DNA from: Candidatus Poribacteria bacterium
Lineage (GTDB): Bacteria > Poribacteria > WGA-4E > UBA9662
Assembly (NCBI GenBank): GCA_036339735.1
Contig: JAYZAL010000061.1
Span: 1 to 31,200, forward strand
DNA length: 31,200 bases
Direction of reading: 5' to 3'
Position 1 is the first letter of the stretch, and each line of letters starts with the position of its first letter. The notes beneath the pieces were generated by a model, which saw only the letters and a program-made list of their open reading frames with translations, did no database searches and was not told the origin of the DNA. Positions 14,861 to 31,200 of the stretch are shown here, piece by piece. The position numbers and the translations under genes are program-made.

Positions 14861-15709
14861 TCAATTGCTAGGCCATAAACGAGGAAAATATGGTCCATCA
14901 AACAGATCTCCATCCTTGACACTAGGTCCCATCAAATCGGCATTCGGGTGATAGCGCCCTTGAGAGTTAAAGCCGCAATCTTTTGGCATCATATGAACTA
15001 CAAAGGATAGTCTTGGTTGGTTAGAAAGATTTGGACCAGAACCATGGTAGGTTAGTGAATGATGAAAACTTGCTTGTCCTGCCTTAAGGATACACGGTTC
15101 AGTTTTCCAATCCATGTTGGGCGGACAATATTTTTTTTGCAGGCTTTCCAAGTCTTTCTCACCAAAAGTATTGGCATCGTGACGGAATCCCCACTGATGT
15201 GAACCTTCTACTACCTGCATGCCACCATTGGATTCATCGGTATCCTGTAGTGCGATCCAAGCAGTGCAAAAATTCATGGTATTAGCACACTGCCAGTGAG
15301 GATAGTCTTGGTGCCAACCGATATTATTGTCTAAATCAGGGTTTTTAATACCGTTTAAACCTGGCTTCCAAATCATCTGATCATGCCAAAGTCGGACTTC
15401 CTTTGTGTTCATCAGCAAAGATCCGATATAGCCAATGACCGGAGTTTGAACCATTTTACGCATAACTTTGTTGACCCACCAGCCATTGACTACTTGACGT
15501 ACAGCCGGATCATCTACTGTGAACTTGGGCTGTCTTAACCAAAAAAAACAGTCGTAGTCCCTCTGACCAGAACAAATTCGTTCAAGTTCATATCGCATCG
15601 CTTCAACTTCTTGGTCATTAAAAAGAACAGGGCTAATCCAATAACCCTTCTGTTGATAGGTAAAGAAGTCATTGTCGTCTAACTGAATATCGGCAGGCTG
15701 GAGTGGCAT
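14861..15709 (-). CDS. PhyH family Fe(II)/2OG dioxygenase
   Basis: Motifs 'WHQD', 'TAWIALQD..ESNGGM.VVEGSH' and 'TYHGSGPNLSNQPRLS'. Confidence 0.92.
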   Translation of the reverse strand: MPLQPADIQLDDNDFFTYQQKGYWISPVLFNDQEVEAMRYELERICSGQRDYDCFFWLRQPKFTVDDPAVRQVVNGWWVNKVMRKMVQTPVIGYIGSLLMNTKEVRLWHDQMIWKPGLNGIKNPDLDNNIGWHQDYPHWQCANTMNFCTAWIALQDTDESNGGMQVVEGSHQWGFRHDANTFGEKDLESLQKKYCPPNMDWKTEPCILKAGQASFHHSLTYHGSGPNLSNQPRLSFVVHMMPKDCGFNSQGRYHPNADLMGPSVKDGDLFDGPYFPRLWPSN

Positions 15710-15895: not shown

Positions 15896-17170
15896 CTAAT
15901 TCAAATCTACCGGTTGAAGCCAAGCTGATTCAAAATCATTGTTGGAATACGGATTTTCTTGTAGCTTAGATGAGATTACCTTAGCTCTTACATAAATTTC
16001 ATTTCCCTGAAACTGATAATTTACCTTGGTACCTGATTGGGTACTAAGAATTTTTCCGATTGATTGATGATTAATAATATCTTTCATATCCAGATTCCTA
16101 AACTGGTCTAGGTCTTTAATATCCTCTTTGACAACGCCAATGAATTGGGCGCGGTAGGTTACTCCGTTTTCAGGCTGAATCGTAATATTATAAGAGTTTT
16201 GATCAGATTGGATAGATTCTATATAAACGCCAGTTGAAGCGTAAAAATCTCCTTTTTCCATAGCATAAATAATCGACTCAGCTGTTAAATGAGCCGATTT
16301 AACCATAACCCATCCACGACCGGGATTACTTTTGCTAGTTTGGTAGTCGTGGTAATTGTGTGCGTCATCGGTAGCCAAACCGTATATAAGGCTTTTTTCT
16401 GGTTTAGTTAAGCGATAGGTTAAAATATAATCCCACATTTTTTCGGTACTCATATGGTCTTGATCACCATAGTTCCTGACAGCAGGATGGCCGTTGTAGA
16501 CTTCGAAAAATTTTTCTTTTTCAACTTCAGCTATATCTTTAGCGGTAATGGCCCAACCAAAGTTGGGGTGGTTAAGATGAACTAGGATCGGACGACCTGT
16601 TTCCTCTCTTTGTTGGTAAACGGCGTCTACGTTTTTTCTTATAACCTCTTGAACTGACTGTCCTGTTTGGGGTGGAATTATCGTTTTTAGGTTGGTAGCG
16701 TTGAGATGAACTGGTAGATTAACGTAACGCGCCGTAATCTCCTCACCTTGCATCAACAAGAATTGTGAGGGGGATTCGAATAAGGATCGAAACTCATCGA
16801 GTGGCTTCAAGCGGACACTCAAGCCGGATTCGGTATCCTCCGTCGATTCCACCCACGGGTGCCCAAATTTGGACAAATATTTTTGATAGGCTTCTTTTAC
16901 TGTTTTGCTGGCTGAGGACAACATGATCCATTTATTTCCTTCGGATAGGATGTTATGATCTGATAGCGCCAGAAAATTGTATCCGTGCTCAACATACCAG
17001 CTGACAATCATTTCGGGGAAATCATCGCCATCACTCCACAAAGAATGTGTGTGGAGGTTACCCTTCCACCATTTAGCCTTACTGCTATCTTCAGCTGATA
17101 TTAAAAAATGTAGATTCAGAAAGACCAAGGCCAAAAGAGTTGTTTTCAAAGATGTTTGCCACAAATACAA
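15896..17170 (-). CDS. secreted PHP-domain metallohydrolase (histidinol-phosphatase-like / CehA-McbA-like)
   Basis: Signal-peptide-like N-terminus. Motifs 'KGNLHTHSLWSDG', 'LSDHN', 'NHPNF', 'EVYN' and 'DDAH'. AGGAGA RBS before the TTG start. Confidence 0.85.
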   Translation of the reverse strand: MYLWQTSLKTTLLALVFLNLHFLISAEDSSKAKWWKGNLHTHSLWSDGDDFPEMIVSWYVEHGYNFLALSDHNILSEGNKWIMLSSASKTVKEAYQKYLSKFGHPWVESTEDTESGLSVRLKPLDEFRSLFESPSQFLLMQGEEITARYVNLPVHLNATNLKTIIPPQTGQSVQEVIRKNVDAVYQQREETGRPILVHLNHPNFGWAITAKDIAEVEKEKFFEVYNGHPAVRNYGDQDHMSTEKMWDYILTYRLTKPEKSLIYGLATDDAHNYHDYQTSKSNPGRGWVMVKSAHLTAESIIYAMEKGDFYASTGVYIESIQSDQNSYNITIQPENGVTYRAQFIGVVKEDIKDLDQFRNLDMKDIINHQSIGKILSTQSGTKVNYQFQGNEIYVRAKVISSKLQENPYSNNDFESAWLQPVDLN

Positions 17171-17296: not shown

Positions 17297-18103
17297 TTAA
17301 CTTTGGGCAGAAATATGACGTTGCCAAAGGTTGATAGATTTTTGGCAGAAAAATCTATTGGTCAGCATGAGTCTGGGTTGATTAGACGTATTTGAGCTAA
17401 CTGCATGAAACAACCTAAGATCTATTAAATAAATATCACCAGGATCTCCGGTCAATTCAATAATAGACAAATCAATATCCCCTGATCTACCCTTGTCCAA
17501 TAATAGATTTTCTCGATTTTTGGTTTTGGGTGAAAATAGCTTAGCGAAAAAATGTTCCTGTTTATTGAGTCTTCGTTTTACCTCCTTCGAGGACATGAAA
17601 TCTTGACAATCGAGCATTCGATGTGAACCTGCAATGACTAAAGTACCTCCTCCTTTTGGCTCGACCTGATCAAGAAAAGTAAAAATTTGTAGACCGATGG
17701 GTTGGTTATGGGGCAACCGAGGGAAATCTAGGTGCCACATCGAATACGGTACTACCCATTGGCCATTAGTGGGCAAAGTAATCAAGAACTGCCAAGGACT
17801 TTTTTCATTTTCAGATGAATTTAGATCCATTTGATTTTTAGTCAGAGTAGATACTAAATCTATCAAGTTTTCATGATCAAGCAATTGTAGCTCATCCGTC
17901 TCTTTTAACTCCTTTCTGATGAGTTTTACTTCTGAATCGGGCAAATCTATCAGATCATTTTTTTTGTATTGCCAGTATCCATTTTTTCTGGCACCTCGGT
18001 TCTCAAATGAAGCATAAACACGCTGTCGAATTGGATCAATGGAACTAGAAGGAAAAAACCCCTCTAAGCTAATGATACCTGACTGTTCGAATTCTTTTTG
18101 CAT
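17297..18103 (-). CDS. PhyH family Fe(II)/2OG dioxygenase
   Basis: Motifs 'WHLD', 'GGGTLVIAGSH' and 'G.PGD..L....LFHAVSSN....PRLM'. The start may be the in-frame CTG at 18139, behind an AGGGAG RBS. Confidence 0.85.
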   Translation of the reverse strand: MQKEFEQSGIISLEGFFPSSSIDPIRQRVYASFENRGARKNGYWQYKKNDLIDLPDSEVKLIRKELKETDELQLLDHENLIDLVSTLTKNQMDLNSSENEKSPWQFLITLPTNGQWVVPYSMWHLDFPRLPHNQPIGLQIFTFLDQVEPKGGGTLVIAGSHRMLDCQDFMSSKEVKRRLNKQEHFFAKLFSPKTKNRENLLLDKGRSGDIDLSIIELTGDPGDIYLIDLRLFHAVSSNTSNQPRLMLTNRFFCQKSINLWQRHISAQS

Positions 18104-18664: not shown

Positions 18665-19555
18665 GTGCCAATGACAGCTGTCGTACCCCTCAGAACTCTA
18701 GATCCGATTCAAATAGAAACTTTTCAGAATCAAGGTTATTTAGTGGTTCGACAAGTCGTACCATCATCGGATTTATTGCCCTTGGTAGAGGTCGTTTCAG
18801 GTGTAGTTGATCGGCAAACAGATGATTTGTATGCTGAAGGTAAAATAACTGATCTCTGTCGAGAGGTTGATTTTACACAACGTTGGTATCGGGTTTTGCA
18901 GCAGTTTGGTGGCCAAAATGAAGTTTTTGGGTGGCACACCAGTGTTTTTAGCCAAGCTTTATTCAATTTAATTGTTCACCCGTCAATATTGGATGTAGTA
19001 GGATCTCTAACAGAACATGAGATCCAGTTCAATGGCGATTTTTGGGTTCGACCTAAGTTGCCAGACGAAAAACTGACTACCCTTCCTTGGCACCAAGACA
19101 GTGCTTACATGCCGAATACCGAAAAAAATACTCATTTAACTGTTTGGATGCCGTTGGTCGATGTTGGTGCTGAAAATGGAACATTGCAATTCCTTCCAAA
19201 CAGCCATCTACTAGGTTTAAAGCCCCATCATCATATTGACGGCGAATCATTTAAAACTCCCAATCAGGACCCATCGGTGGGAAGTGATTGTATCGAGACA
19301 TTAAAGATGAAAGTTGGGGACTTAGTTATTTTTCATAATCTTGTCTTTCACCGTTCCCTTTTGAACCGAACAAAGTCAATCCGTTGGTCAGTTGATTTTC
19401 GTTACAGTCAGACAAATACGCCGCTGGGTAATTTATGGCATAAACCCATCTCATGTGTGGTACGGAGTCATTGCTCTCCCAACAAAGTAGCATCTTGGAA
19501 TGATTGGCAAACAATGTGGGAAGATAGTCCTCACAAATCTAGCTTCCGATGGTAA
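18665..19555 (+). CDS. PhyH family Fe(II)/2OG dioxygenase
   Basis: Motifs 'PWHQD', 'TVWMPLVD...ENGTLQFLPNSH' and 'FHRSLLN....IRWSVDFRY'. Confidence 0.92.
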   Translation: MPMTAVVPLRTLDPIQIETFQNQGYLVVRQVVPSSDLLPLVEVVSGVVDRQTDDLYAEGKITDLCREVDFTQRWYRVLQQFGGQNEVFGWHTSVFSQALFNLIVHPSILDVVGSLTEHEIQFNGDFWVRPKLPDEKLTTLPWHQDSAYMPNTEKNTHLTVWMPLVDVGAENGTLQFLPNSHLLGLKPHHHIDGESFKTPNQDPSVGSDCIETLKMKVGDLVIFHNLVFHRSLLNRTKSIRWSVDFRYSQTNTPLGNLWHKPISCVVRSHCSPNKVASWNDWQTMWEDSPHKSSFRW

Positions 19556-20082: not shown

Positions 20083-20190
20083 ATGGGAATGGACAAATAC
20101 AAATTCACTTTACTAGCTAAATCAAAAAAAAATTATCCATCATTGAATCTGTTGTTTTTCTTGCCTGATTTCGTTGAGGTGAAAATATGA
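20083..20190 (+). CDS. possible 35-aa leader ORF coupled to the giant gene
   Basis: AAAGGGAGA just upstream of ATG 20083 (and ATG 20089). Reads MGMDKYKFTLLAKSKKNYPSLNLLFFLPDFVEVKI*, and its TGA overlaps the next ATG (ATGA). Confidence 0.3.
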   Translation: MGMDKYKFTLLAKSKKNYPSLNLLFFLPDFVEVKI

Positions 20191-23100
20191 AAAGACCCGC
20201 CGATCAAAAGATTATCTGCCATATTTACCAGTTACTTGTTGTTGTGCTTTTTTCTACTAGTTTGATGGCGTCACCATATATTTTCGACGGATATGATCAC
20301 CAGCATAATGGGATTGCCCATCACCACAGCCATGATCAAGATGAGTATCAATTTAATCGGCTCTCGGACGCGGTTCCGATTGATTTGAACAAAAACCACT
20401 TGAAAGTTTTACCAGTCTTGTTAATTCCTAGCGATCTGAATCCAACAGTGGCCGATAAAGATACTGTAGCTGGCCAAATTAAGACACTAATGCTAGAAGT
20501 TCAGACTTTTTATCAAGACCAGATGGCAGCAGATGGTTATCTGGATGATGATGGAATAGGAAAAACGTTTGAATTGGTTGAGGACCCATCAGGTCAAGTC
20601 ACTGTCTACCAGAAGGTCGGTGCACATAGCCTTAGTGAATACGATTCGTGGGCCGCGAATTGGAGTGGGAACTTGATCAATAATATATACCCGGATCTAG
20701 GATCAGACAATACGTTACAAGCTGACTACCCGGAAGACAGGACCATCTATTACGTGGTTATGTTAGACGTAGCTTATACAGGTGGTATAGCTAAAGCGAA
20801 TAGCCCAAGTTCGGGCATCTGTGTGGTATCGACAGAAAATTTAAATTCGGCGCTGACTACACATGAACTAGGTCATGCATTTGGTCTAGGTCATGATTGG
20901 AGGCCTGCAACTTTCGGTGCTGATGGCCGGCAAAAATATTATATTTTGGGATACCGTTGGTTTGGTAAGAGTGGGTCAGATATTATTTTATCTAGCCTAG
21001 CTAAGGCTATTGTGGGAAGCAGCCCTTTTTTCAATAGAGGAGATTTTGACAGCTTTGATATTACTGCTTTTTCAGCGCCTCAGATAGAAGTCTCCTCCAA
21101 CTCCTCTTATCCTTCCGGATCGATGACTCATCAAGTAGATTTTACAATTACCGATAATGATGGGCTTCATATGGTTGCTTTCTATGGAAGGGCTGATGTA
21201 GGCAGTTCGTTCAGTAATTATCGTTACAATGGTGATACGGTCCCAATCTCCTCTATACCTGGAGAATCTTTTTCTTTGATCGACGGTAGAACTTCTTTTA
21301 CCGGGTCATATAACTTTGGTACGCATGAATCAGCCACAACCGATTTAGAAACCTTCTATTCACCAGGCTCCTCCAGCCAGCAAGCTGAAGTGCGACAGGT
21401 TTATCTGCTAGCAATTGATAGGACAGGAAAGCAAACCTGGCACAACATATTGCTATATCACGAAAACCGAATTCCAACCAGACATATAATCGAAGCCGGT
21501 GAATCTTTGAATGAGGTTTTGTATTCCAGAGCGTGGCCTAAAGATGAAATTATCTTCAATGCTGATTCTGTCGAGACAGAACCTATTTATATCTACAAGA
21601 ACAACTTGAAAATTTCGTCAGCTGACCCAAAAAACCCTAGACGAATCCCTGTTGAGGTCAGAATCGAGGGCGCAAAATCAATTCGATTAAGTTCTCTTTC
21701 TATGCCTAACGTATATATGGCTCCTGATTCGACCGATATAACGGTTGAAAACTGTGAAATTACCAATCCAAATTCCTACCCGTATGTTGGAGTGGATATT
21801 GGTCAAGGAGCAGAAGTGACTTTGGTCAACACTCTGATCTATGACCATAATGTGGGGGTTCAGCTGGCTGGTGCTGATTTAAGTGTCATCAACTGCACCA
21901 TCGTTGACAACACTTATGAGTTTTTATCTCCAGGAACCAATACTATCAATATTGTTAATACTATTTTTGCTGAAAACTCTTCCGGTTGGGATGTTCCTTC
22001 CTCACAACTGATAAATATATCTAACTCATTATTCGATAGACCTTTACCAACCAATGTCTCAGCTGAGAATGGAAATATATCAGGGGACCCGAAATTCCAA
22101 GATGCAGCAAACAGGGATTATCAATTGCAGGATAGTTCTCCGGCTATTGATGCGGGAAGTACTAACATAACTAGCCTACCAAATACAGATAAGATCGATA
22201 ATCAGCGAATTTTCGGTGATACGGTCGACATAGGTGCTTATGAGAATGGAAGTCTCCGACAAACGGTCACTGTCAATATTCCTGATACCAATCTACGATC
22301 TCTTCTAGAACAAGCACTGGGCAAGGGTAATGGTGACTCCATTACTGACCTTGAACTGGATGGGTTAAGTGGACAACTGGATGCCTCTAGTTCCAGCATT
22401 AGTAATCTAGCCGGTTTAGAATACTGCATTAACTTGACTGTCCTCAATTTGCATGACAACCAGATTAGTGACCTTAGTGCTTTATCCAACTTGTTGACTA
22501 GTCTAACCGAATTGGACCTGTCTCAAAATAGGATCAGTAACATCAGGCCAATATCTAATTTGACTAAGGTGACGGACCTAAATTTGCTGGGCAATCAAAT
22601 AACAGACATAAGTTTATTATCCAATTTAGCTAACTTAATCGAGTTGAATCTGGGTGGGAACCAAATAACTGATATAAGTGTGTTATCCAACCTGTCTAAC
22701 TTGGCAGAACTGAATTTACTCGGCAACCAATTACCTGCTGAGGCAGGACTAATCATACAAGAACTTAAAGATAGGTCCGTAAACGTTACACATGGTTTCA
22801 TTCAAGAACCGATAGATGTCAATATTCCAGATGCTAATTTGCGAAAATTATTAGAATGGGAATTGGGTAAAAATGCTGGAGATCCAATTAACCATCTTGA
22901 AATGGCTAGTATAGTTAGTTTTTGGGGCCTTAATCGTTTAAGTAATTTTATCAGCGACCTAACCGGTTTAGAATATTGTGTTAACCTTACTCGTTTAGAT
23001 TTGAGGCATAATCAATACATTAGCGACCTTAGCCCCTTATCCAATTTGACGAAGCTGACTCACCTCGACCTAGAAGATAATCAGGTTCGCGACCTTAGCC

Positions 23101-26100
23101 CCCTAGCCAATTTGACGAGTCTGACTCATCTATATCTACCCGGTCGTGCTGGTAAAAACCAGATTAGTGATATTGGACCTTTATCCAATCTGACTAACCT
23201 GAAGGTCTTAGTATTAAGCGGCCACCCGTTCGGCGGGAATATTAGTCTTCTATCCAATCTGGTTAACTTGACTTACCTCGATCTAGAAGTTAACCAGGTT
23301 CGCGACCTTAGCCCCCTAGCCAATTTGACGAGTCTGACTCATCTAAATCTTCACATCAACCAGATTAGTGATATTAGTCCCCTATCCAATCTGGTTAACT
23401 TGACTTACTTGAGTCTGGGTGAGAACCAAATTACTAATCTGAGAACTTTGTCTAATCTGACTAACCTAGAGTCCCTACACTTAAGTGGAAACCCGATCAT
23501 CAATATTAGTTCCCTATCCGGTCTGACCAATCTGACTGAATTGTATTTGAGTTCGAACCGCCACCGTGATGAAATCAGAGACATCACCCCCTTATACAGC
23601 CTGACTAGCCTAGAAGAATTAGGCCTGAGTCACACGAAGATTAAAGATACAAGTTTCTTGTACAACATGACTAGATTGACCCGATTAGTTTTAGTAGATA
23701 ATCAGCTTGAAGACATAAACTTTGTTTCCAACTTGACTAATCTGACTGACTTGACGCTAAACTCCTTAATGAGCGAGGAACCATATGCCAACCAAATCAC
23801 CGATATTACTCCTCTGACTCATTTAGACAATTTGACTGAGCTATATCTTTACAACAACCAGATTAGTGATATTGGACCTTTGTCCAATCTGACCAATCTG
23901 AATAGGTTGTATTTGTATTCTAACCAAATTAATGACATTAGCCCGTTGTCTAATCTCAGCAACCTAACAGTCTTGGACTTACAGCAAAACCCATTAACTA
24001 CGCGTTCAACATCGATCATTCAAGAATTAAGGGGGACTGGAGCAACTGTTTTACATGATGATCCACTTCCAGAGGTTGTGATAGCCAGTATTCCCGATAC
24101 TAATCTGAGAAAGTTGCTCGAACAAGAATTGGGTAAGGATGTAGACGATCCTATTTCAGTGTCAGAACTTTCCGCGTTGAGTGATAGACTGGATCTTTCT
24201 GACGCCAACATTGGAGATGTCAGAGGTTTAGAACACTGCAACAACCTAAATGAGCTGAAACTAAATGCTAACCAAATCACCGATATTACGCCTCTGACTC
24301 ATTTAGACAATTTGACTGAGCTATATCTTCACAATAACCAGATTAATGATATTGGACCTTTGTCCAATCTGACCAATCTGACTGAATTGTATTTGTCTTC
24401 TAATCGGATCAGTGACATTATCTCATTGTCTAATCTTAGCAACTTAACCTACTTAGACCTAGAGAACAACCCACTGACGGATAGTGCAGAATCAATCATA
24501 CGGATCCTCCAGAATAATCAGACTACGGTTCAGTACAATCCAATTCCTACCGCATTAGTAGTGAAAATTCCCGATGTTAATTTACGTTATCAGATAGAAC
24601 AAGCCCTCTCTAAAGATTCTGGTGCTTCCATTACTAGGATTGAATTAGGTCAAATAAGTAACTTAGATGCCTCGAATTCTAGTATCACGGACTTGAGAGG
24701 TTTAGAACACTGTACCAACCTGACCAACTTGAATCTAAGTAGTAACCAGATCACGGATCTTGGTCCTTTATACAGCTTGACTAACTTGGGCGATCTTAAT
24801 CTGCATAACAATCAGATTAGTCATCTTGGGATTTTGTCCAATTTGCCTTATCTTTACAGCTTGAATCTATCCGATAACCAACTCGATAATATTGCTTCAT
24901 TATCAAGACTATCCTACCTAGAGGTCTTAGACGTTCAAAACAATCATTTATCTGCCAGTGCCGGAAGTGTCATACAGAAACTCCGAGATGGTGCGACTAC
25001 GGTCATTCATGACCCAATACCCGCAGCAATAATCGTGAATATTCCCGATTCCAATCTGAGAACAGCATTAGAAGGCGAACTGGGTAAAAATCCAGGCGAA
25101 CCTATTACCGATCTGGAGTTATCTGAGTTACATCGCCCAACCGAAGCACAAAATACAGGGGGCTGGTTATATCTCGTATCTAGGAACATTACAGATCTGA
25201 GAGGTTTAGAATACTGTACCAACCTGACCAAATTGAATCTAAGTAGTAACCAGATCACGGATCTTAGTCCTTTGTATAGCTTGACTAACTTGGGCGATCT
25301 TCGTCTGACTAACAATCAGATTAGTGATATTGAACCTTTATCTAGCCTGGTTAATCTTACTAACTTGGAACTCGGAGCGAATCAAATCGACGACACCAGT
25401 CCGTTGTCTAATTTAATTAGCCTGACCGAATTGGCTCTTTCTATCAACCAAATTACTGATGTAAGTTCATTGTCGAGCTTGACTAGCCTTACTGATCTAG
25501 ATCTAAGACATAATCTGGTTAAGGATCTGACTCCTCTGTCAAATTTGAGTGAACTTCGATTTCTGAATCTAGGAGGGAATCGGGTAGACTACATTGGTAG
25601 TTTGTCAAAGAACAATTACCCGCATCTTATCTACCTGGATTTAAAAGAAAACCCGTTGACAGCTAGTGCGGGATCGATCATTCAAGGACTCAAAGATGAC
25701 GGAATTAATGTTGAGCATGAATCGATTCCAGAAGCACAATTCGTCAATTTTCCTGATGCTAATCTAAAAGCTATCTTAGAGCAAGCACTGGGAAAAGATA
25801 GTGGCGCTACAATTACCGACCTTGAACTCAATGAAATTAGCAGGATAGATGCGTCAGGCTCTAACATCACTGACCTGACAGGTTTAGAACTTTGCCATAA
25901 TCTAATTAACTTAGACTTAAGCCACAACCAAATTAGCGGCATTACCTCTTTGGCCGGATTAATTAGCCTGACTGACTTAGATTTAGACAACAACCAGATT
26001 AGCGACATCAGCCCCTTAACTGACTTAATCAACCTTATTAATCTGAATTTAGTTGGTAATCAATTGACGGCTAATGCAGATTCAATTATACATACCTTCA

Positions 26101-29100
26101 AAGAGGCCGGCACAACCGTTATACATGACGAAATACCAGAAATCATCCCTGACGCTAACTTACGCCATAAAATCGAGCAAGCTTTAGGTAAATATTCAGG
26201 TGATCCTATTAGCCATCTGGAGCTAGCTGAACTTAGCCAAAGCCTAGATGCTTCGGGCGCTGGTATCACTGATTTGAGTGGTCTACAACACTGTACTAAC
26301 TTAACTTCTTTAAATCTAAAAAATAACCAAATTGATGATATTACACTCTTGACTAATCTGAGTAACTTGACTCAGTTAGAGTTGTCAGGGAATAACATTA
26401 GCGACCTTAGCTCTCTATCCAGGTTGACTACACTTAACCAACTCGAACTGGAAGATAACTCGCTGACGAGTATAGGTGATCTCAAAGATCTAGTCCAACT
26501 TCAAGTTTTGCGGCTGGATAAGAACCAAATCACTGAAATCAGTTCTCTGTCCGGACTGAATCAATTAATCGAATTAAGTCTTTCAGGAAACCAGATTGTT
26601 GACATTAGTTCTTTGTCCCGGCTGACTGATTTAGCTAAACTCCATTTATATGAGAACGAGATCATCGATCTTAGACCAATTTCTGACTTGACTGATCTGA
26701 CTAGATTAAGTTTATCCGATAATAAAATTACCAATCTTAGCCCTTTAGAAAAATTAACCCAACTAACTCATATCTATCTGGACGGTAACGAGGTTAGCGA
26801 CCTGAGCATTTTGTCCAACTTGGATAACGCTACCGAATTATGGTTGGGCCAAAACCAGATTCGTGACATCAGCCCCTTATCGAATTTAGCTGGCTTAACA
26901 AATCTAAGCTTGCCTGACAATCAGATCAGTTATCTTGGCACCGTGGACAGCTTGAACCAACTAGCCATAATAGATCTGAGAGATAACCAAATAAGTCACA
27001 TTAACGAGTTATCCGACTTATCTCAGTTGTCGGAATTGAAACTGGAAGGGAATCCGTTAAAAGCTGGTGCTCGGTCGATTATACAAGACTTGAAAACTGA
27101 TGGTGCCATCGTAACACACGATGAAATTCCTACTAATATCATCGAAGACTCAAACCTAAGAGCTGTACTTCAAGAAGCTTTAAATATAAGTCAAAACGAC
27201 CCAGTCACCGCAGCCGACCTAGATGACCCGAATTTGACAACTTTAACAGCAAGTGGACGCTCAATATCTGATTTGACAGGTTTGGAATATGGGATTTATC
27301 TAACCAACCTTGATTTAAGCGGAAATGATATCGACAATATTACCCCTTTATTAAGTCATTCGGGGCTTGGCAGCGGTCATGTGGTTGACTTGACAGGAAA
27401 CCCATTAACCTACGAAATATATTCCAAACAAATTCCAGCCTTAACAGAAAAAGGAGTAACAGTCTACTTCAATCCTCCCGGCGATACTATTTTTATTCCT
27501 GATGCCAATCTTCAAAGAATACTGGCAACTGCTTTTGGCTTAGAAGACACAAATCAGTTTATTCCTTCATCACACTTTTCTACTTTGACTGAACTTGATG
27601 CCCCATTGTCATCTATTACCAACCTAAATGGATTGGAACACTGTGTCAACCTGAAACAATTGTCATTGGAATATAATAATATCAATAACATTGACATACT
27701 TAGTTCTCTAAATCAATTGTCTTACCTCGCTCTAAGTTTTAACCAGATTGACGACATCTCGTCCTTAGAAGAATTGATCAATCTCGACGAAGTCTATCTC
27801 GATAACAACAGAATAAAAAACATCCAATCTTTGGTCGATAATGATGGCATTGATTCTGATAGCGACTACCTACTCTTGACGCACAATCCATTGAGCAATG
27901 TTTCAATGACACATCTAATTCCTCAATTAGAAAGCAGGAATGTAACAGTAAGCGCAGATTATATTGATAATGTGATTGCTTTTTCAGATCCAAATTTAGA
28001 AGGTCTAATTCGGGCAAAATTGGACCAACCTATAGAATTATTAACGACTACTAATACCTCCAGCCTTAAAGATTTAGATGCCCAAAACTCCGGTATAACT
28101 AATTTAGATGGCTTGAATGATTTGAAAAACCTAAATGAGCTAAATATTAGTTTTAATCCACTAAGCGAACATGCGGCATTTCACCAGATTGATGAACTGC
28201 AAATCAGTGGTGTAGAGGTAACTCATGCCGTTGGGCATTGGTTAGTTGATCGACAACAAGACTCAGATCCAATCGAAGTTTTATCTAAACCGGATGAGAT
28301 TGACTCTGAGCCTGATCTAGCATCAACTCCCTACTTGGATGGTACTCACGACTGGGTTGCAATACCTAATCGTATTTTGATTAATTTAGGTGGACCTTCG
28401 GTTAATAAGACTATCACCACTATTTTCAAGGTCGATAATTCCTCAATTGAGCAGCATAAACAAGTGATTTATGAGCAAGGAGGAGACAAACGCGGTCTTA
28501 ACCTATATGTTCACAAAGGTCGGTTATATGGAGGCGGATATAACAGAGAAGTTAGTGAAAATAATTGGCAGGGTGAATGGATTTCTACTTCTATTAGTTC
28601 CGACAAGTGGTATAAGGCTTCTTTGGTTTTACGGCGGAACACTCAAGTCATTGAAGATATTAACCTAGAGCTTTGGCTCAATGGGAACCTGATTTCTATT
28701 CAACCGGCCGCTAAAATTTATGGTGATACTGGCGAAATTGGTATTGGAAATGTCAATCAATCCACACTATTTCATGATGGTACTAGCCGTCAACAACCGA
28801 ACCATTTTTTTGCTGGTTCAATTGCTAGTATTTCTATCTATAATACAGCTCTTCCTGAAAACAGCTTGCAAGCTATGACGATTGGATCTTTAGCTAGTTT
28901 AGAAACCATCTGGTCAGATGACCCAGAACAACCATCAACAATTGAGTATAGTTCCGATGAAATAATTAAACCACTAGGAAAACTGAATTTTAAGCCTGTT
29001 AATGGTAGCAGTACGATAAAAAGTATTAGATGGTATTTAGCGCCAGATGGTCATGGGGATGAATTGGATGCTCCGAAAACGCTGGCCAATCCAGCTGCCA

Positions 29101-31200
29101 TTAAATTATACGGATATATCGGGGACAAAAATGAAGATCGTCTAATTTCTACAGCTGAGACGTCTGGTCAAGGTAATAGTTTCGTATTCAAATTTGGCCC
29201 GACCTCATCTGAAAATCAAAATGAAGATGTTTTATTCTCCGTCAATTCAGGGGAAACATTCTATATCGATTTAGCGATTGATCCTAGCAAATTAACAACG
29301 CTCGAAAATCGACAACAAATAGTACAGCTAAGTTTGTCTCTGAGTAATATCGAGACTACTGCTGTCGGTGGATTAAGTCAATCCTATGATGATTATGGCC
29401 AACCGAAGGGCCATCGCTGGAGAGATGAACTCCAGCCAGCATTGGATTCTCCATTAGAGATTAGAGTGGAATTAGTCAAAAAACAACCACTGACCGTATC
29501 ACCGAAGTTTGTTGAGCTCCGTTACCAAGCAGGTGGTGTCACCCAGATGTATGATCCTTCAACTGACAATTGGGTGTCTCCGAGAATAATTTTCACCAAT
29601 GAAACCAGCTTAGAAAAAACTTATTCACTAGAAGAGACAGCTCGAGTTTCACCGCCCGGTTTGGTATCACTCACACCGGTTGACAGTGATTCTAATAATC
29701 CGTTACCTGATGGGTCAGCGGATATTAGCGACATTAAAACTTTGTTTACTGATGACGATCTGACTGTAGAAATTAGCTATAGTGGAGCTTTGACTCACCA
29801 TCAAGATCAGAAAATTATCGGCCAAATATTGATAGACACAGGCCGGCCTGACAACACTATGTCAGCACCTCCGGCTAGTCATTTCGGCTTTGGATCCAAC
29901 CAGACAATGGCAGTCGATTTACAGGTTGAATTGATCCAAGTTAATGGGAAAGTTGTAGCTGAATTGAATGACACTCAGGATTCCGACCCAATCGGTCGTT
30001 TCTTGGTCAAGCACGTTTTTGGTCAAGCCGGCCAAACCAATCAGTTACTGGTTAGAATTCCTAGGTCTTTGTTGGATAAGTCGGATAAACAACCGATCGG
30101 TTTAGCGGTTCAGCTGGAGGAAGATTGGATGCCGAATCGGGATTTACAGGCTGCGACCATCGCTTTTACTGATGTTGGACCTTGGACACCAACTGACCTC
30201 AGCTGGTTCCAGCTGGAAGCCAATAATGTAGCCTTAGGCATAGATGAAGCAACGAAAACTAAAAGTTTAAATGTCACTATGCCAAATCCACCAAGTGCAG
30301 GTATTCACTATGCCAGTCTAAAAATTGATGATGGTAATGGCTTCTCATTCAATCTCCCAATCAGTCTGTCGGTCAGTGATAACCAATTAGCCAACTTAGA
30401 CATAAGACCTAGGACAGTGGGTGAAGATATTCTAGTCCGGGTAGGTGACACCTACCAATTCTCCGTGATTGGAAAGGATATTAATGGTCTGAACGTGGAT
30501 ATCAGCGGACAAACAGTCATCAACTGGGTTGTGGGTGATCCTACCAAAGGTGGAGTATCGTCCACTGGTTTATTTAATGCTATTGCTGTTGGTTCAGTCA
30601 GAGTGGAAGCTAGTATTGGCAATGTGGTAGGTCAATCGGCTAGGATCGAGATTATAGAGAAGATTTTGGGCGATTCGACTGGTACGACTCCATCGATAGA
30701 CTACCCAGATGGTCAGCCAGATGGCAAAGTAGATATCTTTGATCTGGTCAATATGGCTAATCATTGGCATCAGACTGAATCTGATACAACTGCCAGTGTT
30801 AAGGAGTTTAAAGCTCTGGATATTGCTGGTAAAGGTGGATTCGATCAGGTAGACAAGAAAGTTGATATTTTTGATCTAGTAGTTTTAGTAGACAATTACG
30901 GTACTGGAATAACACCTGCACCTGCACTGGCCGCACCGGCGATCCTGGCTTCATTACCCACTTTCGAGGGTGGAAGTAGCGATTTGCAAGTAGTCAGCAC
31001 CGATAATACCAGTCAATCTGGTAGCCGAGTTCGTACGATTATTGATCAGCAAATCGAGCTAGACATACTACTGAATCAAGTGCCTAATCTGTATGCCTAT
31101 AGCTACGATCTGGTCTACGATCAACAAAAGTTAGACTTAATAACTCAGGAAGATGGCCGACCTGTCTTCCAAGATGGATCTATGTTCAGAACTGAAACGG
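20187..31200 (+). CDS. giant secreted multidomain protein (>3670 aa, 3' end outside the window): zinc metalloprotease, beta-helix, 10 LRR modules, LamG, Ig, dockerin, cohesin-like
   Basis: GAGGTG RBS and ATG 20187. Manual translation stays open to the window end (MKRPADQKIICHIYQLLVVVLFSTSLMA... to ...FQDGSMFRTET). The lack of any long + ORF here in the supplied track agrees with there being no in-frame stop. Confidence 0.93.
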   Translation, partial: MKRPADQKIICHIYQLLVVVLFSTSLMASPYIFDGYDHQHNGIAHHHSHDQDEYQFNRLSDAVPIDLNKNHLKVLPVLLIPSDLNPTVADKDTVAGQIKTLMLEVQTFYQDQMAADGYLDDDGIGKTFELVEDPSGQVTVYQKVGAHSLSEYDSWAANWSGNLINNIYPDLGSDNTLQADYPEDRTIYYVVMLDVAYTGGIAKANSPSSGICVVSTENLNSALTTHELGHAFGLGHDWRPATFGADGRQKYYILGYRWFGKSGSDIILSSLAKAIVGSSPFFNRGDFDSFDITAFSAPQIEVSSNSSYPSGSMTHQVDFTITDNDGLHMVAFYGRADVGSSFSNYRYNGDTVPISSIPGESFSLIDGRTSFTGSYNFGTHESATTDLETFYSPGSSSQQAEVRQVYLLAIDRTGKQTWHNILLYHENRIPTRHIIEAGESLNEVLYSRAWPKDEIIFNADSVETEPIYIYKNNLKISSADPKNPRRIPVEVRIEGAKSIRLSSLSMPNVYMAPDSTDITVENCEITNPNSYPYVGVDIGQGAEVTLVNTLIYDHNVGVQLAGADLSVINCTIVDNTYEFLSPGTNTINIVNTIFAENSSGWDVPSSQLINISNSLFDRPLPTNVSAENGNISGDPKFQDAANRDYQLQDSSPAIDAGSTNITSLPNTDKIDNQRIFGDTVDIGAYENGSLRQTVTVNIPDTNLRSLLEQALGKGNGDSITDLELDGLSGQLDASSSSISNLAGLEYCINLTVLNLHDNQISDLSALSNLLTSLTELDLSQNRISNIRPISNLTKVTDLNLLGNQITDISLLSNLANLIELNLGGNQITDISVLSNLSNLAELNLLGNQLPAEAGLIIQELKDRSVNVTHGFIQEPIDVNIPDANLRKLLEWELGKNAGDPINHLEMASIVSFWGLNRLSNFISDLTGLEYCVNLTRLDLRHNQYISDLSPLSNLTKLTHLDLEDNQVRDLSPLANLTSLTHLYLPGRAGKNQISDIGPLSNLTNLKVLVLSGHPFGGNISLLSNLVNLTYLDLEVNQVRDLSPLANLTSLTHLNLHINQISDISPLSNLVNLTYLSLGENQITNLRTLSNLTNLESLHLSGNPIINISSLSGLTNLTELYLSSNRHRDEIRDITPLYSLTSLEELGLSHTKIKDTSFLYNMTRLTRLVLVDNQLEDINFVSNLTNLTDLTLNSLMSEEPYANQITDITPLTHLDNLTELYLYNNQISDIGPLSNLTNLNRLYLYSNQINDISPLSNLSNLTVLDLQQNPLTTRSTSIIQELRGTGATVLHDDPLPEVVIASIPDTNLRKLLEQELGKDVDDPISVSELSALSDRLDLSDANIGDVRGLEHCNNLNELKLNANQITDITPLTHLDNLTELYLHNNQINDIGPLSNLTNLTELYLSSNRISDIISLSNLSNLTYLDLENNPLTDSAESIIRILQNNQTTVQYNPIPTALVVKIPDVNLRYQIEQALSKDSGASITRIELGQISNLDASNSSITDLRGLEHCTNLTNLNLSSNQITDLGPLYSLTNLGDLNLHNNQISHLGILSNLPYLYSLNLSDNQLDNIASLSRLSYLEVLDVQNNHLSASAGSVIQKLRDGATTVIHDPIPAAIIVNIPDSNLRTALEGELGKNPGEPITDLELSELHRPTEAQNTGGWLYLVSRNITDLRGLEYCTNLTKLNLSSNQITDLSPLYSLTNLGDLRLTNNQISDIEPLSSLVNLTNLELGANQIDDTSPLSNLISLTELALSINQITDVSSLSSLTSLTDLDLRHNLVKDLTPLSNLSELRFLNLGGNRVDYIGSLSKNNYPHLIYLDLKENPLTASAGSIIQGLKDDGINVEHESIPEAQFVNFPDANLKAILEQALGKDSGATITDLELNEISRIDASGSNITDLTGLELCHNLINLDLSHNQISGITSLAGLISLTDLDLDNNQISDISPLTDLINLINLNLVGNQLTANADSIIHTFKEAGTTVIHDEIPEIIPDANLRHKIEQALGKYSGDPISHLELAELSQSLDASGAGITDLSGLQHCTNLTSLNLKNNQIDDITLLTNLSNLTQLELSGNNISDLSSLSRLTTLNQLELEDNSLTSIGDLKDLVQLQVLRLDKNQITEISSLSGLNQLIELSLSGNQIVDISSLSRLTDLAKLHLYENEIIDLRPISDLTDLTRLSLSDNKITNLSPLEKLTQLTHIYLDGNEVSDLSILSNLDNATELWLGQNQIRDISPLSNLAGLTNLSLPDNQISYLGTVDSLNQLAIIDLRDNQISHINELSDLSQLSELKLEGNPLKAGARSIIQDLKTDGAIVTHDEIPTNIIEDSNLRAVLQEALNISQNDPVTAADLDDPNLTTLTASGRSISDLTGLEYGIYLTNLDLSGNDIDNITPLLSHSGLGSGHVVDLTGNPLTYEIYSKQIPALTEKGVTVYFNPPGDTIFIPDANLQRILATAFGLEDTNQFIPSSHFSTLTELDAPLSSITNLNGLEHCVNLKQLSLEYNNINNIDILSSLNQLSYLALSFNQIDDISSLEELINLDEVYLDNNRIKNIQSLVDNDGIDSDSDYLLLTHNPLSNVSMTHLIPQLESRNVTVSADYIDNVIAFSDPNLEGLIRAKLDQPIELLTTTNTSSLKDLDAQNSGITNLDGLNDLKNLNELNISFNPLSEHAAFHQIDELQISGVEVTHAVGHWLVDRQQDSDPIEVLSKPDEIDSEPDLASTPYLDGTHDWVAIPNRILINLGGPSVNKTITTIFKVDNSSIEQHKQVIYEQGGDKRGLNLYVHKGRLYGGGYNREVSENNWQGEWISTSISSDKWYKASLVLRRNTQVIEDINLELWLNGNLISIQPAAKIYGDTGEIGIGNVNQSTLFHDGTSRQQPNHFFAGSIASISIYNTALPENSLQAMTIGSLASLETIWSDDPEQPSTIEYSSDEIIKPLGKLNFKPVNGSSTIKSIRWYLAPDGHGDELDAPKTLANPAAIKLYGYIGDKNEDRLISTAETSGQGNSFVFKFGPTSSENQNEDVLFSVNSGETFYIDLAIDPSKLTTLENRQQIVQLSLSLSNIETTAVGGLSQSYDDYGQPKGHRWRDELQPALDSPLEIRVELVKKQPLTVSPKFVELRYQAGGVTQMYDPSTDNWVSPRIIFTNETSLEKTYSLEETARVSPPGLVSLTPVDSDSNNPLPDGSADISDIKTLFTDDDLTVEISYSGALTHHQDQKIIGQILIDTGRPDNTMSAPPASHFGFGSNQTMAVDLQVELIQVNGKVVAELNDTQDSDPIGRFLVKHVFGQAGQTNQLLVRIPRSLLDKSDKQPIGLAVQLEEDWMPNRDLQAATIAFTDVGPWTPTDLSWFQLEANNVALGIDEATKTKSLNVTMPNPPSAGIHYASLKIDDGNGFSFNLPISLSVSDNQLANLDIRPRTVGEDILVRVGDTYQFSVIGKDINGLNVDISGQTVINWVVGDPTKGGVSSTGLFNAIAVGSVRVEASIGNVVGQSARIEIIEKILGDSTGTTPSIDYPDGQPDGKVDIFDLVNMANHWHQTESDTTASVKEFKALDIAGKGGFDQVDKKVDIFDLVVLVDNYGTGITPAPALAAPAILASLPTFEGGSSDLQVVSTDNTSQSGSRVRTIIDQQIELDILLNQVPNLYAYSYDLVYDQQKLDLITQEDGRPVFQDGSMFRTET
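20400..21450 (+). other. metzincin-type zinc metalloprotease domain plus adjoining beta domain of the giant protein
   Basis: HELGHAFGLGH (HExxHxxGxxH) encoded at 20862-20894, preceded by 'EVQTFYQDQM...G.GKTFEL'. Boundaries approximate. Confidence 0.85.
21480..22245 (+). other. right-handed parallel beta-helix with a choice-of-anchor-Q-like tail
   Basis: Coils 'ITVENCEITN', 'LVNTLIYDH', 'VINCTIVDN' and 'IVNTIFAEN', then 'GDPKFQDAANRDYQLQDSSPAIDAG...VDIGAYE'. Confidence 0.85.
22278..28227 (+). repeat. array of ten capped internalin/SDS22-type leucine-rich-repeat modules (~67 repeats of 22 aa)
   Basis: N-caps of the form '(I/F)PDxNLR..(L/I)EQALGK..G..IT..EL' start at about 22278, 22824, 24090, 24567, 25041, 25749, 26145, 27141, 27495 and 27981. 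Repeats follow 'LTxLxLxxNQIxDIxPLSNL'. C-caps follow 'NPL....SIIQ.L...G.TV.H'. Confidence 0.93.
28230..28875 (+). other. LamG-like jellyroll (concanavalin A-like) domain
   Basis: Motifs 'LDGTHDWVAIP', 'KQVIYEQGGDKRGLNLYV', 'DKWYKASLV', 'LWLNG' and 'FAGSIASISIYNTAL'. Confidence 0.85.
30387..30660 (+). other. bacterial Ig-like (Big_2-type) domain
   Basis: 'LDIRP...VRVGDTYQFSVIGKDING...NWVVGDPTKGGVSSTGLFNAIAVGSVRVEASIG'. Confidence 0.8.
30669..30902 (+). other. dockerin-like duplicated Ca2+-binding motif
   Basis: 'GD...DGKVDIFDLVNMANHW' and 'LD...DKKVDIFDLVVLVDNYG', followed by a 'PAPALAAP' linker. Confidence 0.8.
31040..31200 (+). other. start of a cohesin-like beta-sandwich (truncated by the window)
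   Basis: 'QQIELDILLNQVPNLYAYSYDLVYDQQKL' fits the cohesin pattern 'v.v.v....nl.g.qf.l.YD...L'. Confidence 0.55.

Follow-up and report, generated by a model that had tools for sequence, protein, structure and literature searches.

What protein is encoded by the very long reading frame that runs off the end of this poribacterial contig, and what might it do for a free-living marine bacterium, the lineage to which the host belongs? The window, meaning the whole stretch of DNA analyzed, is a complete contig (C61) of 31,200 bp. Inspection of the ORF listing and of the translation showed that the plus-strand frame 20187..31199 proceeds from its ATG for 3671 residues, unbroken and stop-free to the window end, bearing out an earlier claim, made from the letters alone, of a single open frame of more than 11 kb. 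At a G+C content of ~40%, we calculate that ~6% of random codons would be stops, so that chance is excluded as the source of 3671 open codons. Because the window is the whole contig, the truncation of the gene is due to the assembly and not to the window. The preliminary description also called the gene hidden and missing from the ORF track. It is indeed absent as a completed ORF, since the frame leaves the contig, but it is not hidden, as public records hold close relatives named hypothetical protein or choice-of-anchor Q domain-containing protein. The features of the locus are as follows.

20176..20181, + strand: Shine-Dalgarno-like GAGGTG, 5 nt upstream of the start codon, read from the sequence
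20187..31200, + strand: giant gene, of which the window contains 3671 codons, ATG start, 3′ end cut by the contig end
20187..20270, + strand: probable Sec signal peptide, aa 1-28, judged by eye, pattern kept in relatives
20271..20393, + strand: His/Asp-rich segment, aa 29-69, preceding the catalytic domain and disordered in the model
20394..21056, + strand: metzincin catalytic domain of OgpA/AMUC_1438 type, aa ~70-290, from model, structure and profile matches
20862..20897, + strand: zinc-binding motif HELGHAFGLGHD, aa 226-237, with HELGHAFGLGH at 226-236
21069..21476, + strand: beta-sandwich domain, aa ~295-430, following the catalytic domain as in OgpA
21594..22256, + strand: region resembling a right-handed beta-helix, aa ~470-690, with a choice-of-anchor Q domain at its end
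22278..28256, + strand: ten capped internalin-type LRR modules, aa 698-2690
28338..28862, + strand: LamG-like jelly-roll domain, aa ~2718-2892 (Laminin_G_3 E 6e-4, below cut-off)
28974..30386, + strand: beta-rich region without assigned fold, ~470 aa, aa 2930-3400
29493..30173, + strand: stretch varying strongly between strains, aa 3103-3329
30435..30635, + strand: Ig-like domain of Big_2 type, aa 3417-3483 (E 1e-4; 22.7 bits, just under the 22.8 cut-off)
30699..30902, + strand: putative, divergent dockerin, aa 3505-3572, containing two DIFDLV segments (Dockerin_1 E 0.069)
30972..31199, + strand: cohesin-like domain, first ~76 residues, aa 3596-3671, with the remainder and the sorting domain beyond the contig

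An AT-rich spacer of 630 bp lies upstream of the Shine-Dalgarno site. Apart from the gene itself, no ORF of at least 150 aa overlaps it, and no Rfam family matches there; two shorter ORFs (102 and 116 aa) lie across it in antisense. The adjoining genes are of ordinary metabolism and provide no functional link.

Gene integrity and the missing 3′ end

Relatives of 3858 and 3693 aa that are 94-98% identical to the window protein provide the missing 182 residues, in which the cohesin-like domain is completed and a sorting domain of T9SS type A (CTD) follows. Judging by these relatives (3858 aa), the full-length protein would contain about 3,860 residues. Relative P0003 is 94% identical over the query region searched, and a contig of an independent seawater run extends beyond the window end with the same residues as P0003. 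A second relative, P0002, is without aa 1228-1387, showing that the number of modules varies among near-identical relatives. The final 300 bases of the window overlap no other contig of the genome, and nowhere in it is the P0003 tail encoded at >52% identity; the 3′ end of the gene is simply unassembled. The sorting domain that the preliminary description had hoped to find past the contig end exists, as a T9SS type A CTD, in the 94-98% identical relatives.

A frame of this length built from repeats could also be an assembly chimera of several LRR genes, a reading that we hold to be extremely improbable. Five joints in contigs from RNA and DNA runs do skip 504-3012 bases within the LRR array, and one module is absent from P0002. 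However, four of the five joints are supported by 21-27 letters on the shorter side, as is typical of repeat artefacts, and the internal DNA repeats are short and diverged (≤230 bp at 85%). The same domain order is present in two other assemblies, over 3693 and 3858 residues, and contigs from two independent DNA runs cover 30/30 and 25/30 bins of the gene, such that those of one run span all 30. An in-frame stop or a misassembly splitting the ORF, either of which would have undone the earlier single-frame proposal, was not seen.

The N-terminal protease

The probable Sec signal peptide shows a charged start, a hydrophobic core and L-M-A preceding S-P. Residues 24-66, which reach through most of the His/Asp-rich segment, have pLDDT <50 in the AF2 model, and alignment shows that relatives carry a Cys-containing motif in the segment corresponding to aa 29-69. 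The model of the protease (pLDDT 76.5, pTM 0.76) was compared with known structures. In the Foldseek search the first nine matches were all OgpA or AMUC_1438 (E 4e-15 to 5e-13), followed by ADAM33 at 3e-6. With VIA-align, six OgpA/AMUC_1438 entries were matched at Z 21.2-22.1 with 286-313 residues aligned (best match AMUC_1438 at Z 22.1, 289 aligned, rmsd 3.9), and the next, TACE, at 13.6. These alignments span model residues 70-424/451 and hence both the catalytic domain and the beta-sandwich, for which the domain limits of OgpA were taken from the available text of its structural paper (PMC7518263). A profile of six Poribacteria domains searched against PDB sequences likewise gave 8dek_B (E 1.6e-11) and 6z2o_A (E 1.9e-11), with BaP1 the best other protease at 5e-5. 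By contrast with these matches, no Pfam protease model was above its cut-off. Reprolysin_5 scored 18.7 bits (cut-off 27), Reprolysin_4 17.5 (22) and Reprolysin_3 17.7 (22.4), over only ~30-50 residues around the motif. Thus the domain falls outside the reprolysin/ADAM group (MEROPS M12B), since those models stay below their cut-offs and the ADAM and venom metzincins reach a structural Z of only ~13. From fold and profile together, the protease belongs with the OgpA/AMUC_1438 O-glycopeptidases. The earlier assignment of an HExxHxxGxxH protease holds as far as the motif is concerned, but the enzyme is not a generic one; its kinship with OgpA and AMUC_1438 suggests a narrower substrate range.

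Among 16 aligned sequences, H226, E227, H230, H236, D237 and Y256 are invariant, leaving the catalytic residues intact. The residue at the Met-turn is Leu254 (Y-I-L-G-Y) and not Met, a departure from the metzincin definition, while the turn itself and Tyr256 are retained. Leu also occupies this position in one of the five other Poribacteria sequences aligned, the remaining four having Met. Because the substitution recurs in the family, and because fold and profile both place the domain there, Leu254 alone does not exclude the protein from the OgpA/AMUC_1438 group. At the glycan site, the sequence alignment pairs Y188, invariant in the six-sequence Poribacteria alignment, with Y171 of AMUC_1438, whose alanine mutant is described as inactive in the available text of PMC9513282. 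The same kind of alignment sets Asn220 at the place of Y217, the second aromatic of the site, so glycan dependence is not supported residue by residue.

To our knowledge, OgpA-type O-glycopeptidases have been characterized from one gut bacterium only, Akkermansia muciniphila, where they cut mucins, and they are metzincins without a MEROPS classification. OgpA (Amuc_1119; PDB 6Z2D/O/P/Q), which bears the trade name OpeRATOR, matches the two-domain fold at Z 21.2-21.6 over 286-300 aligned residues and likewise combines a catalytic Glu with three His ligands and a Met-turn region, though its motif, HELGHGLNLPH, is without the middle Gly. Unlike the giant protein, OgpA is a stand-alone enzyme of 385 residues, and it cleaves N-terminal to O-glycosylated Ser/Thr (PMC7518263, as far as available). 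AMUC_1438 of Akkermansia muciniphila (PDB 8DF2, 8DEK) shares with the window protein the motif form HELGHxFGLxH and has the same succession of metzincin catalytic domain and beta-sandwich. In both proteins Pfam PF12044 is touched only by a short stretch around the motif (available text of PMC9513282). AMUC_1438 is far smaller, with a C-terminal NPCBM module that ends near residue 639 in the portion of the same paper at hand, and it carries this CBM51-like module where the giant protein has the beta-helix, ten LRR modules, LamG, dockerin, cohesin and T9SS CTD. The structure-based identity of the two is ~14%, and the activity of the giant protein is a prediction; Y217 and the Met-turn Met of AMUC_1438 are replaced by Asn220 and Leu254. 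In its available text, the AMUC_1438 paper points to many uncharacterized relatives in environmental bacteria and nowhere mentions Poribacteria (PMC9513282).

Of the 151 genomes sampled from the phylum, 128 carry the protease domain, frequently more than once, and in these it is joined to many different binding arrays. When stand-alone relatives of the protease were sought through a word index, just four matches appeared.

Binding array and C-terminal cassette

The beta-helix-like region ends in a choice-of-anchor Q domain (NF041518, residues 643-686, 45.6 bits against a cut-off of 25). A DUF5123 match in the region stays below the Pfam cut-off, the record of relative P0004 carries PF13229 and PF05048, and for 143/150 among the matches listed this region is the best-matching part. 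The LRR array that follows accounts for more than half of the protein length. Pfam LRR_4 matches it at E 1e-172 in 35 two-repeat stretches, the count used here; a stricter regular expression gave 34 units. Ten N-cap motifs of the type IPDxNLR mark the starts of the modules, each of which ends in its own short C-terminal cap. The LRR domain of Listeria internalin A (PDB 2OMU and others), with which the protein shares 22-residue repeats and the N-terminal cap, matches one module at E 5e-79. The NCBIfam internalin_A model is matched in eight stretches, with 762 bits against a whole-protein cut-off of 1600, and only its LRR parts match; it is the best of the NCBIfam internalin models, every one of which stays below such a cut-off. 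Typical of internalins are an inter-repeat Ig domain and either an LPXTG or a GW anchor, for none of which the Pfam and NCBIfam scans of the giant protein gave a match, and the ten capped modules in tandem set it apart from the Listeria proteins. Judged by these features the protein is not an internalin, though its modules would work like internalin LRR domains. Next is the LamG-like domain, 37% identical to a protein called LamG-like by NCBI and with no match among PDB sequences at E 0.1.

Residues 2930-3400 gave zero Pfam or NCBIfam matches and no usable match in the ESM Atlas, and their AF2 model, built from a five-sequence alignment, has a pLDDT of 43.7, too low for a fold search. Of 80 substitutions against P0003, 42 fall in the strain-variable stretch, where the comparison with a run contig gave 20 nonsynonymous and 3 synonymous codons among the differences listed. 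A diversity-generating retroelement was considered as the source of this variation and rejected, the changes not being restricted to adenines.

The protein closes with a Big_2, dockerin, cohesin and CTD cassette. The two DIFDLV segments of the putative dockerin align with canonical dockerins from paralogous cassettes, relative to which the first loop is altered and the second has a 7-residue insertion; this dockerin is absent from the genome scan at E 0.01. On full-length P0003 the cohesin-like domain reaches 23.9 bits (E 5e-5), marginally under its 24.1 cut-off. The dockerin-cohesin-CTD cassette is present in four other ORFs, and the genome is rich in cohesin and dockerin modules on CTD proteins. 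The window itself is without the CTD, as the contig ends first; on P0003 this domain reaches 30.2 against 23 (TIGR04183) and 31 against 27 bits (Por_Secre_tail, PF18962), and T9SS CTDs were found at 33 other places in the genome at E 5e-19 or better. As to the secretion machinery, a PorV match lies above the Pfam cut-off (28.7 against 27), and two PorU-like C25 peptidases, one of which, on C38, has a FlgD_ig/CTD-type end, score 281 and 273 bits, below the cut-off of 420. A 2176-aa ORF is SprA-like at E 1e-18, below the curated cut-off and without a Pfam match. The GldL, GldM and GldN models had no match in the 92%-complete genome, nor in control genomes, a result that does not argue for the absence of these proteins.

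The earlier domain list was thus largely correct, the phylum it pointed to fits as well, and its statement that no characterized protein has this architecture stands, as none turned up. The protein is a new arrangement of known parts and not a new kind of system. Dockerin-bearing peptidases in an inferred cellulosome-like system have likewise been described in another Gram-negative lineage, in Ca. Stygibacter (Cloacimonadota), together with a cohesin scaffold of 3,755 aa that bears a T9SS-type CTD (available text of PMC8542988). There, cohesins and dockerins reside on separate scaffold and enzyme proteins (PMC8542988, same portion), whereas one dockerin and one cohesin adjoin in the giant protein, directly before the CTD. 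Poribacterial LRR (PF12799) and WD40 proteins that carry signal peptides as well as TIGR04183 domains were described in 2014 by Kamke et al. (PMC3909097), the available text of which contains the words peptidase, dockerin and cohesin zero times each. Compared with the repeat proteins described there, the giant protein adds an enzyme at its head and cohesin and dockerin modules at its foot.

Proposed surface display, occurrence and competing readings

Near-identical copies of the gene occur in marine metagenomes, the seawater data coming from many studies, with at least 15 runs containing half or more of its sampled words. A look-up in metatranscriptomes, proposed in the preliminary description, found the gene in six RNA libraries, which may also carry DNA, at 26-65% of the sampled words, and contigs from RNA libraries, which hold no information on transcript ends, cover 28/30 and 26/30 bins. 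Among the matches listed, 24 runs are labelled as marine, seawater or plankton metagenomes or as one coded organism, and none of these 24 bears a sponge label.

We lean toward the reading that the giant protein is a T9SS-displayed surface protein that binds and cleaves its targets and is possibly specific for glycoproteins. The Sec signal peptide would direct passage over the inner membrane, and the type A CTD would direct a T9SS-like route over the outer membrane and attachment to the cell surface. The C-terminal cassette would then form the foot, and its dockerin and cohesin may pair with partner modules. Because the CTD is at the C terminus, the N-terminal protease would be the end most distant from the cell. 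This far end would consist of an OgpA/AMUC_1438-family zinc endopeptidase, with metzincin catalytic domain and beta-sandwich, followed by the beta-helix. The ten LRR modules and the LamG-like domain may bind protein or glycan ligands and keep the substrate, or the particle that bears it, near the protease. As OgpA and AMUC_1438 cut only beside O-glycosylated Ser/Thr, the substrates would most likely be mucin-like glycoproteins that belong to marine gels, particles or cell surfaces and serve as food. The earlier picture of a surface capture-and-cleave machine with a protease at the tip of a stalk therefore fits the architecture and the CTD of the relatives, while export, orientation and ligand binding are the parts that we infer.

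With the same surface display, the enzyme might instead be a general metalloprotease acting on unmodified proteins captured by the LRRs, with no need for an O-glycan; there is an appreciable chance of this, although we do not expect it. Only one of the two AMUC_1438 glycan-site aromatics has a counterpart (Y188, with N220 at the place of Y217), the weak Pfam and PDB sequence matches are to reprolysins, and the zinc motif ends in HD, as in the adamalysin signature. The authors of the AMUC_1438 study, in its available text, moreover call the family large and its roles possibly diverse (PMC9513282). Set against this are the structural Z of 22 for OgpA/AMUC_1438 compared with 13 for ADAM or venom enzymes, and the requirement for an O-glycan of both characterized members of the nearest family (PMC7518263; PMC9513282, as far as available). 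Another reading makes the protein mainly an adhesin, or a component of a surface coat or network, whose function would lie in the LRR array and the dockerin-cohesin foot, with the protease acting only on the protein itself or its neighbors, in maturation or shedding. The share of the length given to LRRs, the abundance in the genome of CTD proteins with cohesin and dockerin modules, and the module missing from P0002 are consistent with this, as is the Cys motif ahead of the catalytic domain of relatives, which we take to resemble a latency switch. We nevertheless judge it unlikely, as the family keeps its catalytic residues without exception and the protease domain is paired with varied binding arrays in most sampled genomes, so that a shared enzymatic task with varied targeting fits better than self-processing.

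Attack on other cells and host interaction, two of the roles first suggested for the protein, are unsupported, the runs with the gene pointing to seawater and the marine environment throughout. More broadly, a tool for interaction with eukaryotic cells, whether for evasion of hosts or grazers or for attack, seems very unlikely to us. The LRR modules are close to those of internalin A, the strain-variable stretch suggests an arms race, and such roles are discussed for poribacterial LRR proteins in the available text of Kamke et al. (PMC3909097). This reading is at odds with the labels of the 24 runs and with the absence of translocation or toxin domains in the Pfam and NCBIfam scans, and it leaves the OgpA-type protease unexplained.

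The repeat arrays of Poribacteria, LRR here and WD40 in relatives, have long been interpreted as eukaryote-mimicking decoys. Tentatively, and with more doubt than confidence, we suggest that they may instead be the targeting arms of phylum-wide OgpA-type glycoproteases, displayed through a T9SS-like route and linked by dockerins and cohesins into a cellulosome-like surface machine for mucin-type glycoproteins rather than for cellulose, while the strain-variable domain would be under diversifying selection and mark a surface arms race. The OgpA-type catalytic unit now extends over the majority of genomes sampled from an entire phylum, major sponge symbionts among its members, and is attached to the same repeat proteins for which roles in host interaction have been discussed. 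The N-terminal 430 residues form a compact unit suited to expression and assay. If glycoprotein cleavage proves true, the repeat proteins would gain a concrete, testable job, and a route would be indicated by which the bacteria feed on mucus-like organic material, in the sea as well as in sponges.

Architecture and integrity of the giant reading frame

The giant gene is a single stop-free frame of 3671 codons (window 20187-31199, forward strand), with a GAGGTG site 5 nt ahead of its ATG and a 630-bp AT-rich spacer upstream. Because the G+C content is ~40%, a chance origin of this frame is excluded. The only overlapping ORFs are antisense and short (102 and 116 aa), and an Rfam search over the region matched no family. 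The single open frame of more than 11 kb and the multidomain architecture put forward in the preliminary description are real, with the following domain order.

Domain order of the giant protein (residues counted from its ATG)
aa 1-28: start resembling a signal peptide, by visual inspection only
aa 29-69 (window 20271-20393, forward strand): His/Asp-rich segment, disordered in the model
aa 70-430: protease unit, from model and profile comparisons
aa ~470-690: beta-helix-type region with a choice-of-anchor Q domain at its end (45.6 bits, cut-off 25)
aa 698-2690: ten LRR modules, each with an IPDxNLR-type opening cap and a short conserved closing cap
aa ~2718-2892: LamG-like domain (Pfam E 6e-4, below cut-off)
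aa 3417-3483: Big_2, borderline (22.7 bits, cut-off 22.8)
aa 3505-3572: divergent dockerin, from a sub-threshold Pfam match and alignment with paralogous dockerins
aa 3596 onward: start of a cohesin-like domain

Every domain named beforehand proved right, yet most calls outside the LRR array are sub-threshold or borderline. Pfam LRR_4 matches the protein at E 1e-172 over 35 stretches, and one LRR module matches the LRR domain of Listeria internalin A (E 5e-79); the NCBIfam internalin models match by the LRR parts only and fall below their whole-protein cut-offs. The LamG-like region is 37% identical to a protein named LamG-like by NCBI. Residues 2930-3400 match no family in Pfam or NCBIfam and gave no usable hit in the ESM Atlas, and their AF2 model, built from 5 sequences, is poor (pLDDT 43.7).

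The source genome (4.32 Mb, 107 contigs, 92% complete) contributes the window as an entire contig of 31,200 bp, and the gene is truncated by the contig end. Neither an overlap with its final 300 bases nor the coding sequence of the missing tail is present on any other contig. Querying with residues 2690-3671 yielded five proteins, including P0002 (3693 aa, 98% identical to the query) and the full-length P0003 (3858 aa, 94%), both of which extend 182 residues past the final residue of the window. The P0003 tail completes the cohesin-like domain (Pfam Cohesin 23.9 bits, just below the cut-off of 24.1, E 5e-5) and ends in a T9SS type A C-terminal sorting domain, or CTD (PF18962, 31 bits against 27; TIGR04183, 30.2 against 23). 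In addition, a contig from X3, an independent seawater run, overhangs the window end, and its in-frame translation matches P0003 over the ten residues that follow this point. The preliminary description asked for the stop codon and the sorting domain; both were reached through relatives and reads, not from the present assembly.

The internal DNA repeats of the gene are short and diverged, the longest being 230 bp at 85%. Contigs from the DNA run X3 cover 30 of 30 bins of the gene and those from X2 cover 25 of 30, and no in-frame stop was seen. Single-base deletions are present in one low-depth RNA-library contig, from run X16. Five joints in run contigs skip 504-3012 bases within the LRR array, with a shorter side of just 21-27 letters in four of the five, and we read these as repeat effects. 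One LRR module (aa 1228-1387, window 23868-24347) is absent from P0002 and sits exactly between two 85%-alike DNA repeats. The gap may therefore reflect natural variation in module number or collapse in some assemblies.

The 15 ORFs upstream of the giant gene include an M20 peptidase, a CN hydrolase, a DegT aminotransferase, a GFO oxidoreductase and a cupin, together with four PhyH-family paralogues within 17 kb; none of these genes is linked to the giant gene.

Upstream genes (window positions)
3061-3801 (+), 14861-15709 (-), 17297-18103 (-), 18665-19555 (+): PhyH-family dioxygenases
9126-10658: GH32, near the PhyH paralogues
3912-4790: GH43-like gene, near the PhyH paralogues
425-2806 (+), 10758-11615 (+), 15896-17170 (-): ORFs of 793, 285 and 424 aa, no Pfam family at E 1e-5

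Kinship and spread of the protease head

The model of residues 1-460 (mean pLDDT 76.5, pTM 0.76) places the protease head with two Akkermansia muciniphila O-glycopeptidases, OgpA and AMUC_1438. In a Foldseek search of the PDB, rows 1-9 are all OgpA (6Z2D/O/P/Q) or AMUC_1438 (8DF2, 8DEK), at E 4e-15 to 5e-13, followed by ADAM33 at E 3e-6. By VIA-align, six OgpA/AMUC_1438 entries reach Z 22.1 (289 aligned, rmsd 3.9) to 21.2, with TACE next at 13.6 and venom metalloproteinases at ~13. The aligned range, from model residue 70 to 424-451, takes in the beta-sandwich as well as the catalytic domain that precedes it, the same two-domain layout as described for OgpA (PMC7518263). A profile of six Poribacteria protease domains run against PDB sequences found 8dek_B (E 1.6e-11) and 6z2o_A (1.9e-11), the best other protease being BaP1 at 5e-5; at the level of sequence, the evidence thus agrees with the fold match, independently of the model. 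Both AMUC_1438 (PMC9513282) and the giant protein touch Pfam PF12044 solely through a short stretch around the motif.

The 16 aligned relatives all share H226, E227, G229, H230, G233, H236, D237 and Y256. At the Met-turn the giant protein has Leu254, a position occupied by Met in most relatives and by Leu in one other. OgpA and AMUC_1438 are reported to cleave immediately N-terminal to O-glycosylated Ser/Thr (PMC7518263, PMC9513282), and AMUC_1438 activity is described as needing two tyrosines, Y171 and Y217 (PMC9513282); the former aligns with invariant Y188 of the giant protein, the latter with Asn220. Membership of the head in the OgpA/AMUC_1438 family is well supported. Because Leu254 and Asn220 argue for caution, we infer only tentatively that its proteolysis may depend on glycans.

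In several relatives (P0157, P0013, P0158, P0162, P0164 and P0166), the segment preceding the catalytic domain, aa 29-69 of the giant protein, includes a motif with a Cys, HFCGV-T/I-D or CGYDHQ; the giant protein has Asp in place of this Cys. The motif is reminiscent of the cysteine switch in matrix metalloproteinases, and the segment may serve latency. For OgpA, no proenzyme form is known (PMC7518263). In P0013 and P0114, the signal-peptide region is separated from the catalytic domain by a TPR-like insertion of ~170 residues.

The source genome has one copy of the protease domain. With E 1e-5 as the threshold, 128 of 151 sampled genomes of the phylum contain a match. By family within the order, the window's genome excluded, the counts are 1/3, 9/10, 23/26 and 94/100; at the same threshold, none of 11 genomes from the five other families in the phylum sample gave a match. 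Up to 11 matches occur per genome, in frames of ~340 to 6,670 aa. Relatives found by word search join the domain to LRR, WD40-type propellers, Big_1 and CTD, and NCBI names place three of them in Candidatus Poribacteria. The closest, P0157 (partial, 55% identical), has the same domain order as far as its sequence goes, and P0004 (2396 aa) retains head and foot without the LRR array. When residues 1-690 were compared with the library, the best match lay in the beta-helix-type region for 143 of the best 150 matches listed and in the protease part for the other seven (P0004, P0009, P0013, P0020, P0027, P0078 and P0114).

Proposed surface route and the dockerin-cohesin foot

The source genome has the CTD at 33 further places (E 5e-19 or better). 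PorV has one match above its Pfam cut-off (28.7 against 27), and two large C25 peptidases score 281 and 273 bits against the PorU model, below its cut-off of 420; the PorU-like peptidase that was scanned, on contig C38, has a FlgD_ig/CTD-type domain at its end. A 2176-aa ORF gives four matches along the SprA model, the best at E 1e-18 and below cut-off, and no Pfam match. The GldL, GldM and GldN models are silent in this genome and equally silent in control genomes.

Four other ORFs (contigs C58, C100, C45 and C94) share the dockerin-cohesin-CTD cassette, with canonical dockerins in these paralogous copies, and two further ORFs (C64, C53) have cohesin-CTD. Genome-wide, Dockerin_1 has 18 matches, 15 above cut-off (two of these only with neighbouring matches), and Cohesin has 14, 11 above cut-off. 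Cohesin/dockerin ORFs mostly end in a T9SS-type CTD, and some have two cohesins. A comparable system, inferred for a Cloacimonadota lineage, is described as combining dockerin-bearing peptidases with a CTD-bearing cohesin scaffold (PMC8542988). Some of the other giant CTD-bearing ORFs have a dockerin-cohesin-CTD foot like that of the giant protein.

Cohesin/dockerin examples in the source genome
C91:4381-5238
C41:280-1077
C36:41824-43449
C50:11756-12322
C77:81185-81724

Other giant CTD-bearing ORFs in the source genome
C58: 3356 aa, 5'-open; cadherin/VCBS-like repeats at its start, by eye
C94: 7432-aa frame
C53: 4738 aa
C16: 4207 aa
C100: 4209 and 3444 aa

Variation, occurrence and proposed function

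The window protein differs from P0003 by 80 substitutions, and 42 of these lie in aa 3103-3329 (window 29493-30173), 6% of the length and inside the region of unassigned fold. Against run X15, aa 3116-3211 show 20 nonsynonymous and 3 synonymous codons among the differences listed, a sample beyond which lie 141 further differences; the changes in the variable stretch are not adenine-restricted. Judging from such substitutions, we read the stretch as an exposed segment of the protein that is probably under diversifying selection.

The giant gene occurs whole or in part in 20 of the 24 runs listed; these 20 stem from 15 studies, and in 15 runs at least half of its sampled words are present. All of the runs are labelled marine, seawater or plankton, or by a coded organism. 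Six are RNA libraries (word shares 0.26-0.65), and in two of these, which belong to separate studies, contigs span 28 and 26 of the 30 bins. The RNA-library contigs show presence in the libraries and are insufficient as proof of transcription.

Every module of the giant protein is known already, and LRR/CTD proteins of Poribacteria were described in 2014 (PMC3909097). The OgpA-type head, its phylum-wide spread and the dockerin-cohesin foot are absent from the main texts of the papers searched: by term search, the main text of the AMUC_1438 paper (PMC9513282) does not mention Poribacteria, and that of Kamke et al. (PMC3909097) contains none of peptidase, dockerin or cohesin. We lean, if only slightly, toward a T9SS-displayed surface protein whose LRR, LamG and beta-helix modules would capture ligands, which the OgpA-type metalloprotease, at the end far from the cell, would then cleave, the substrates probably being glycoproteins.
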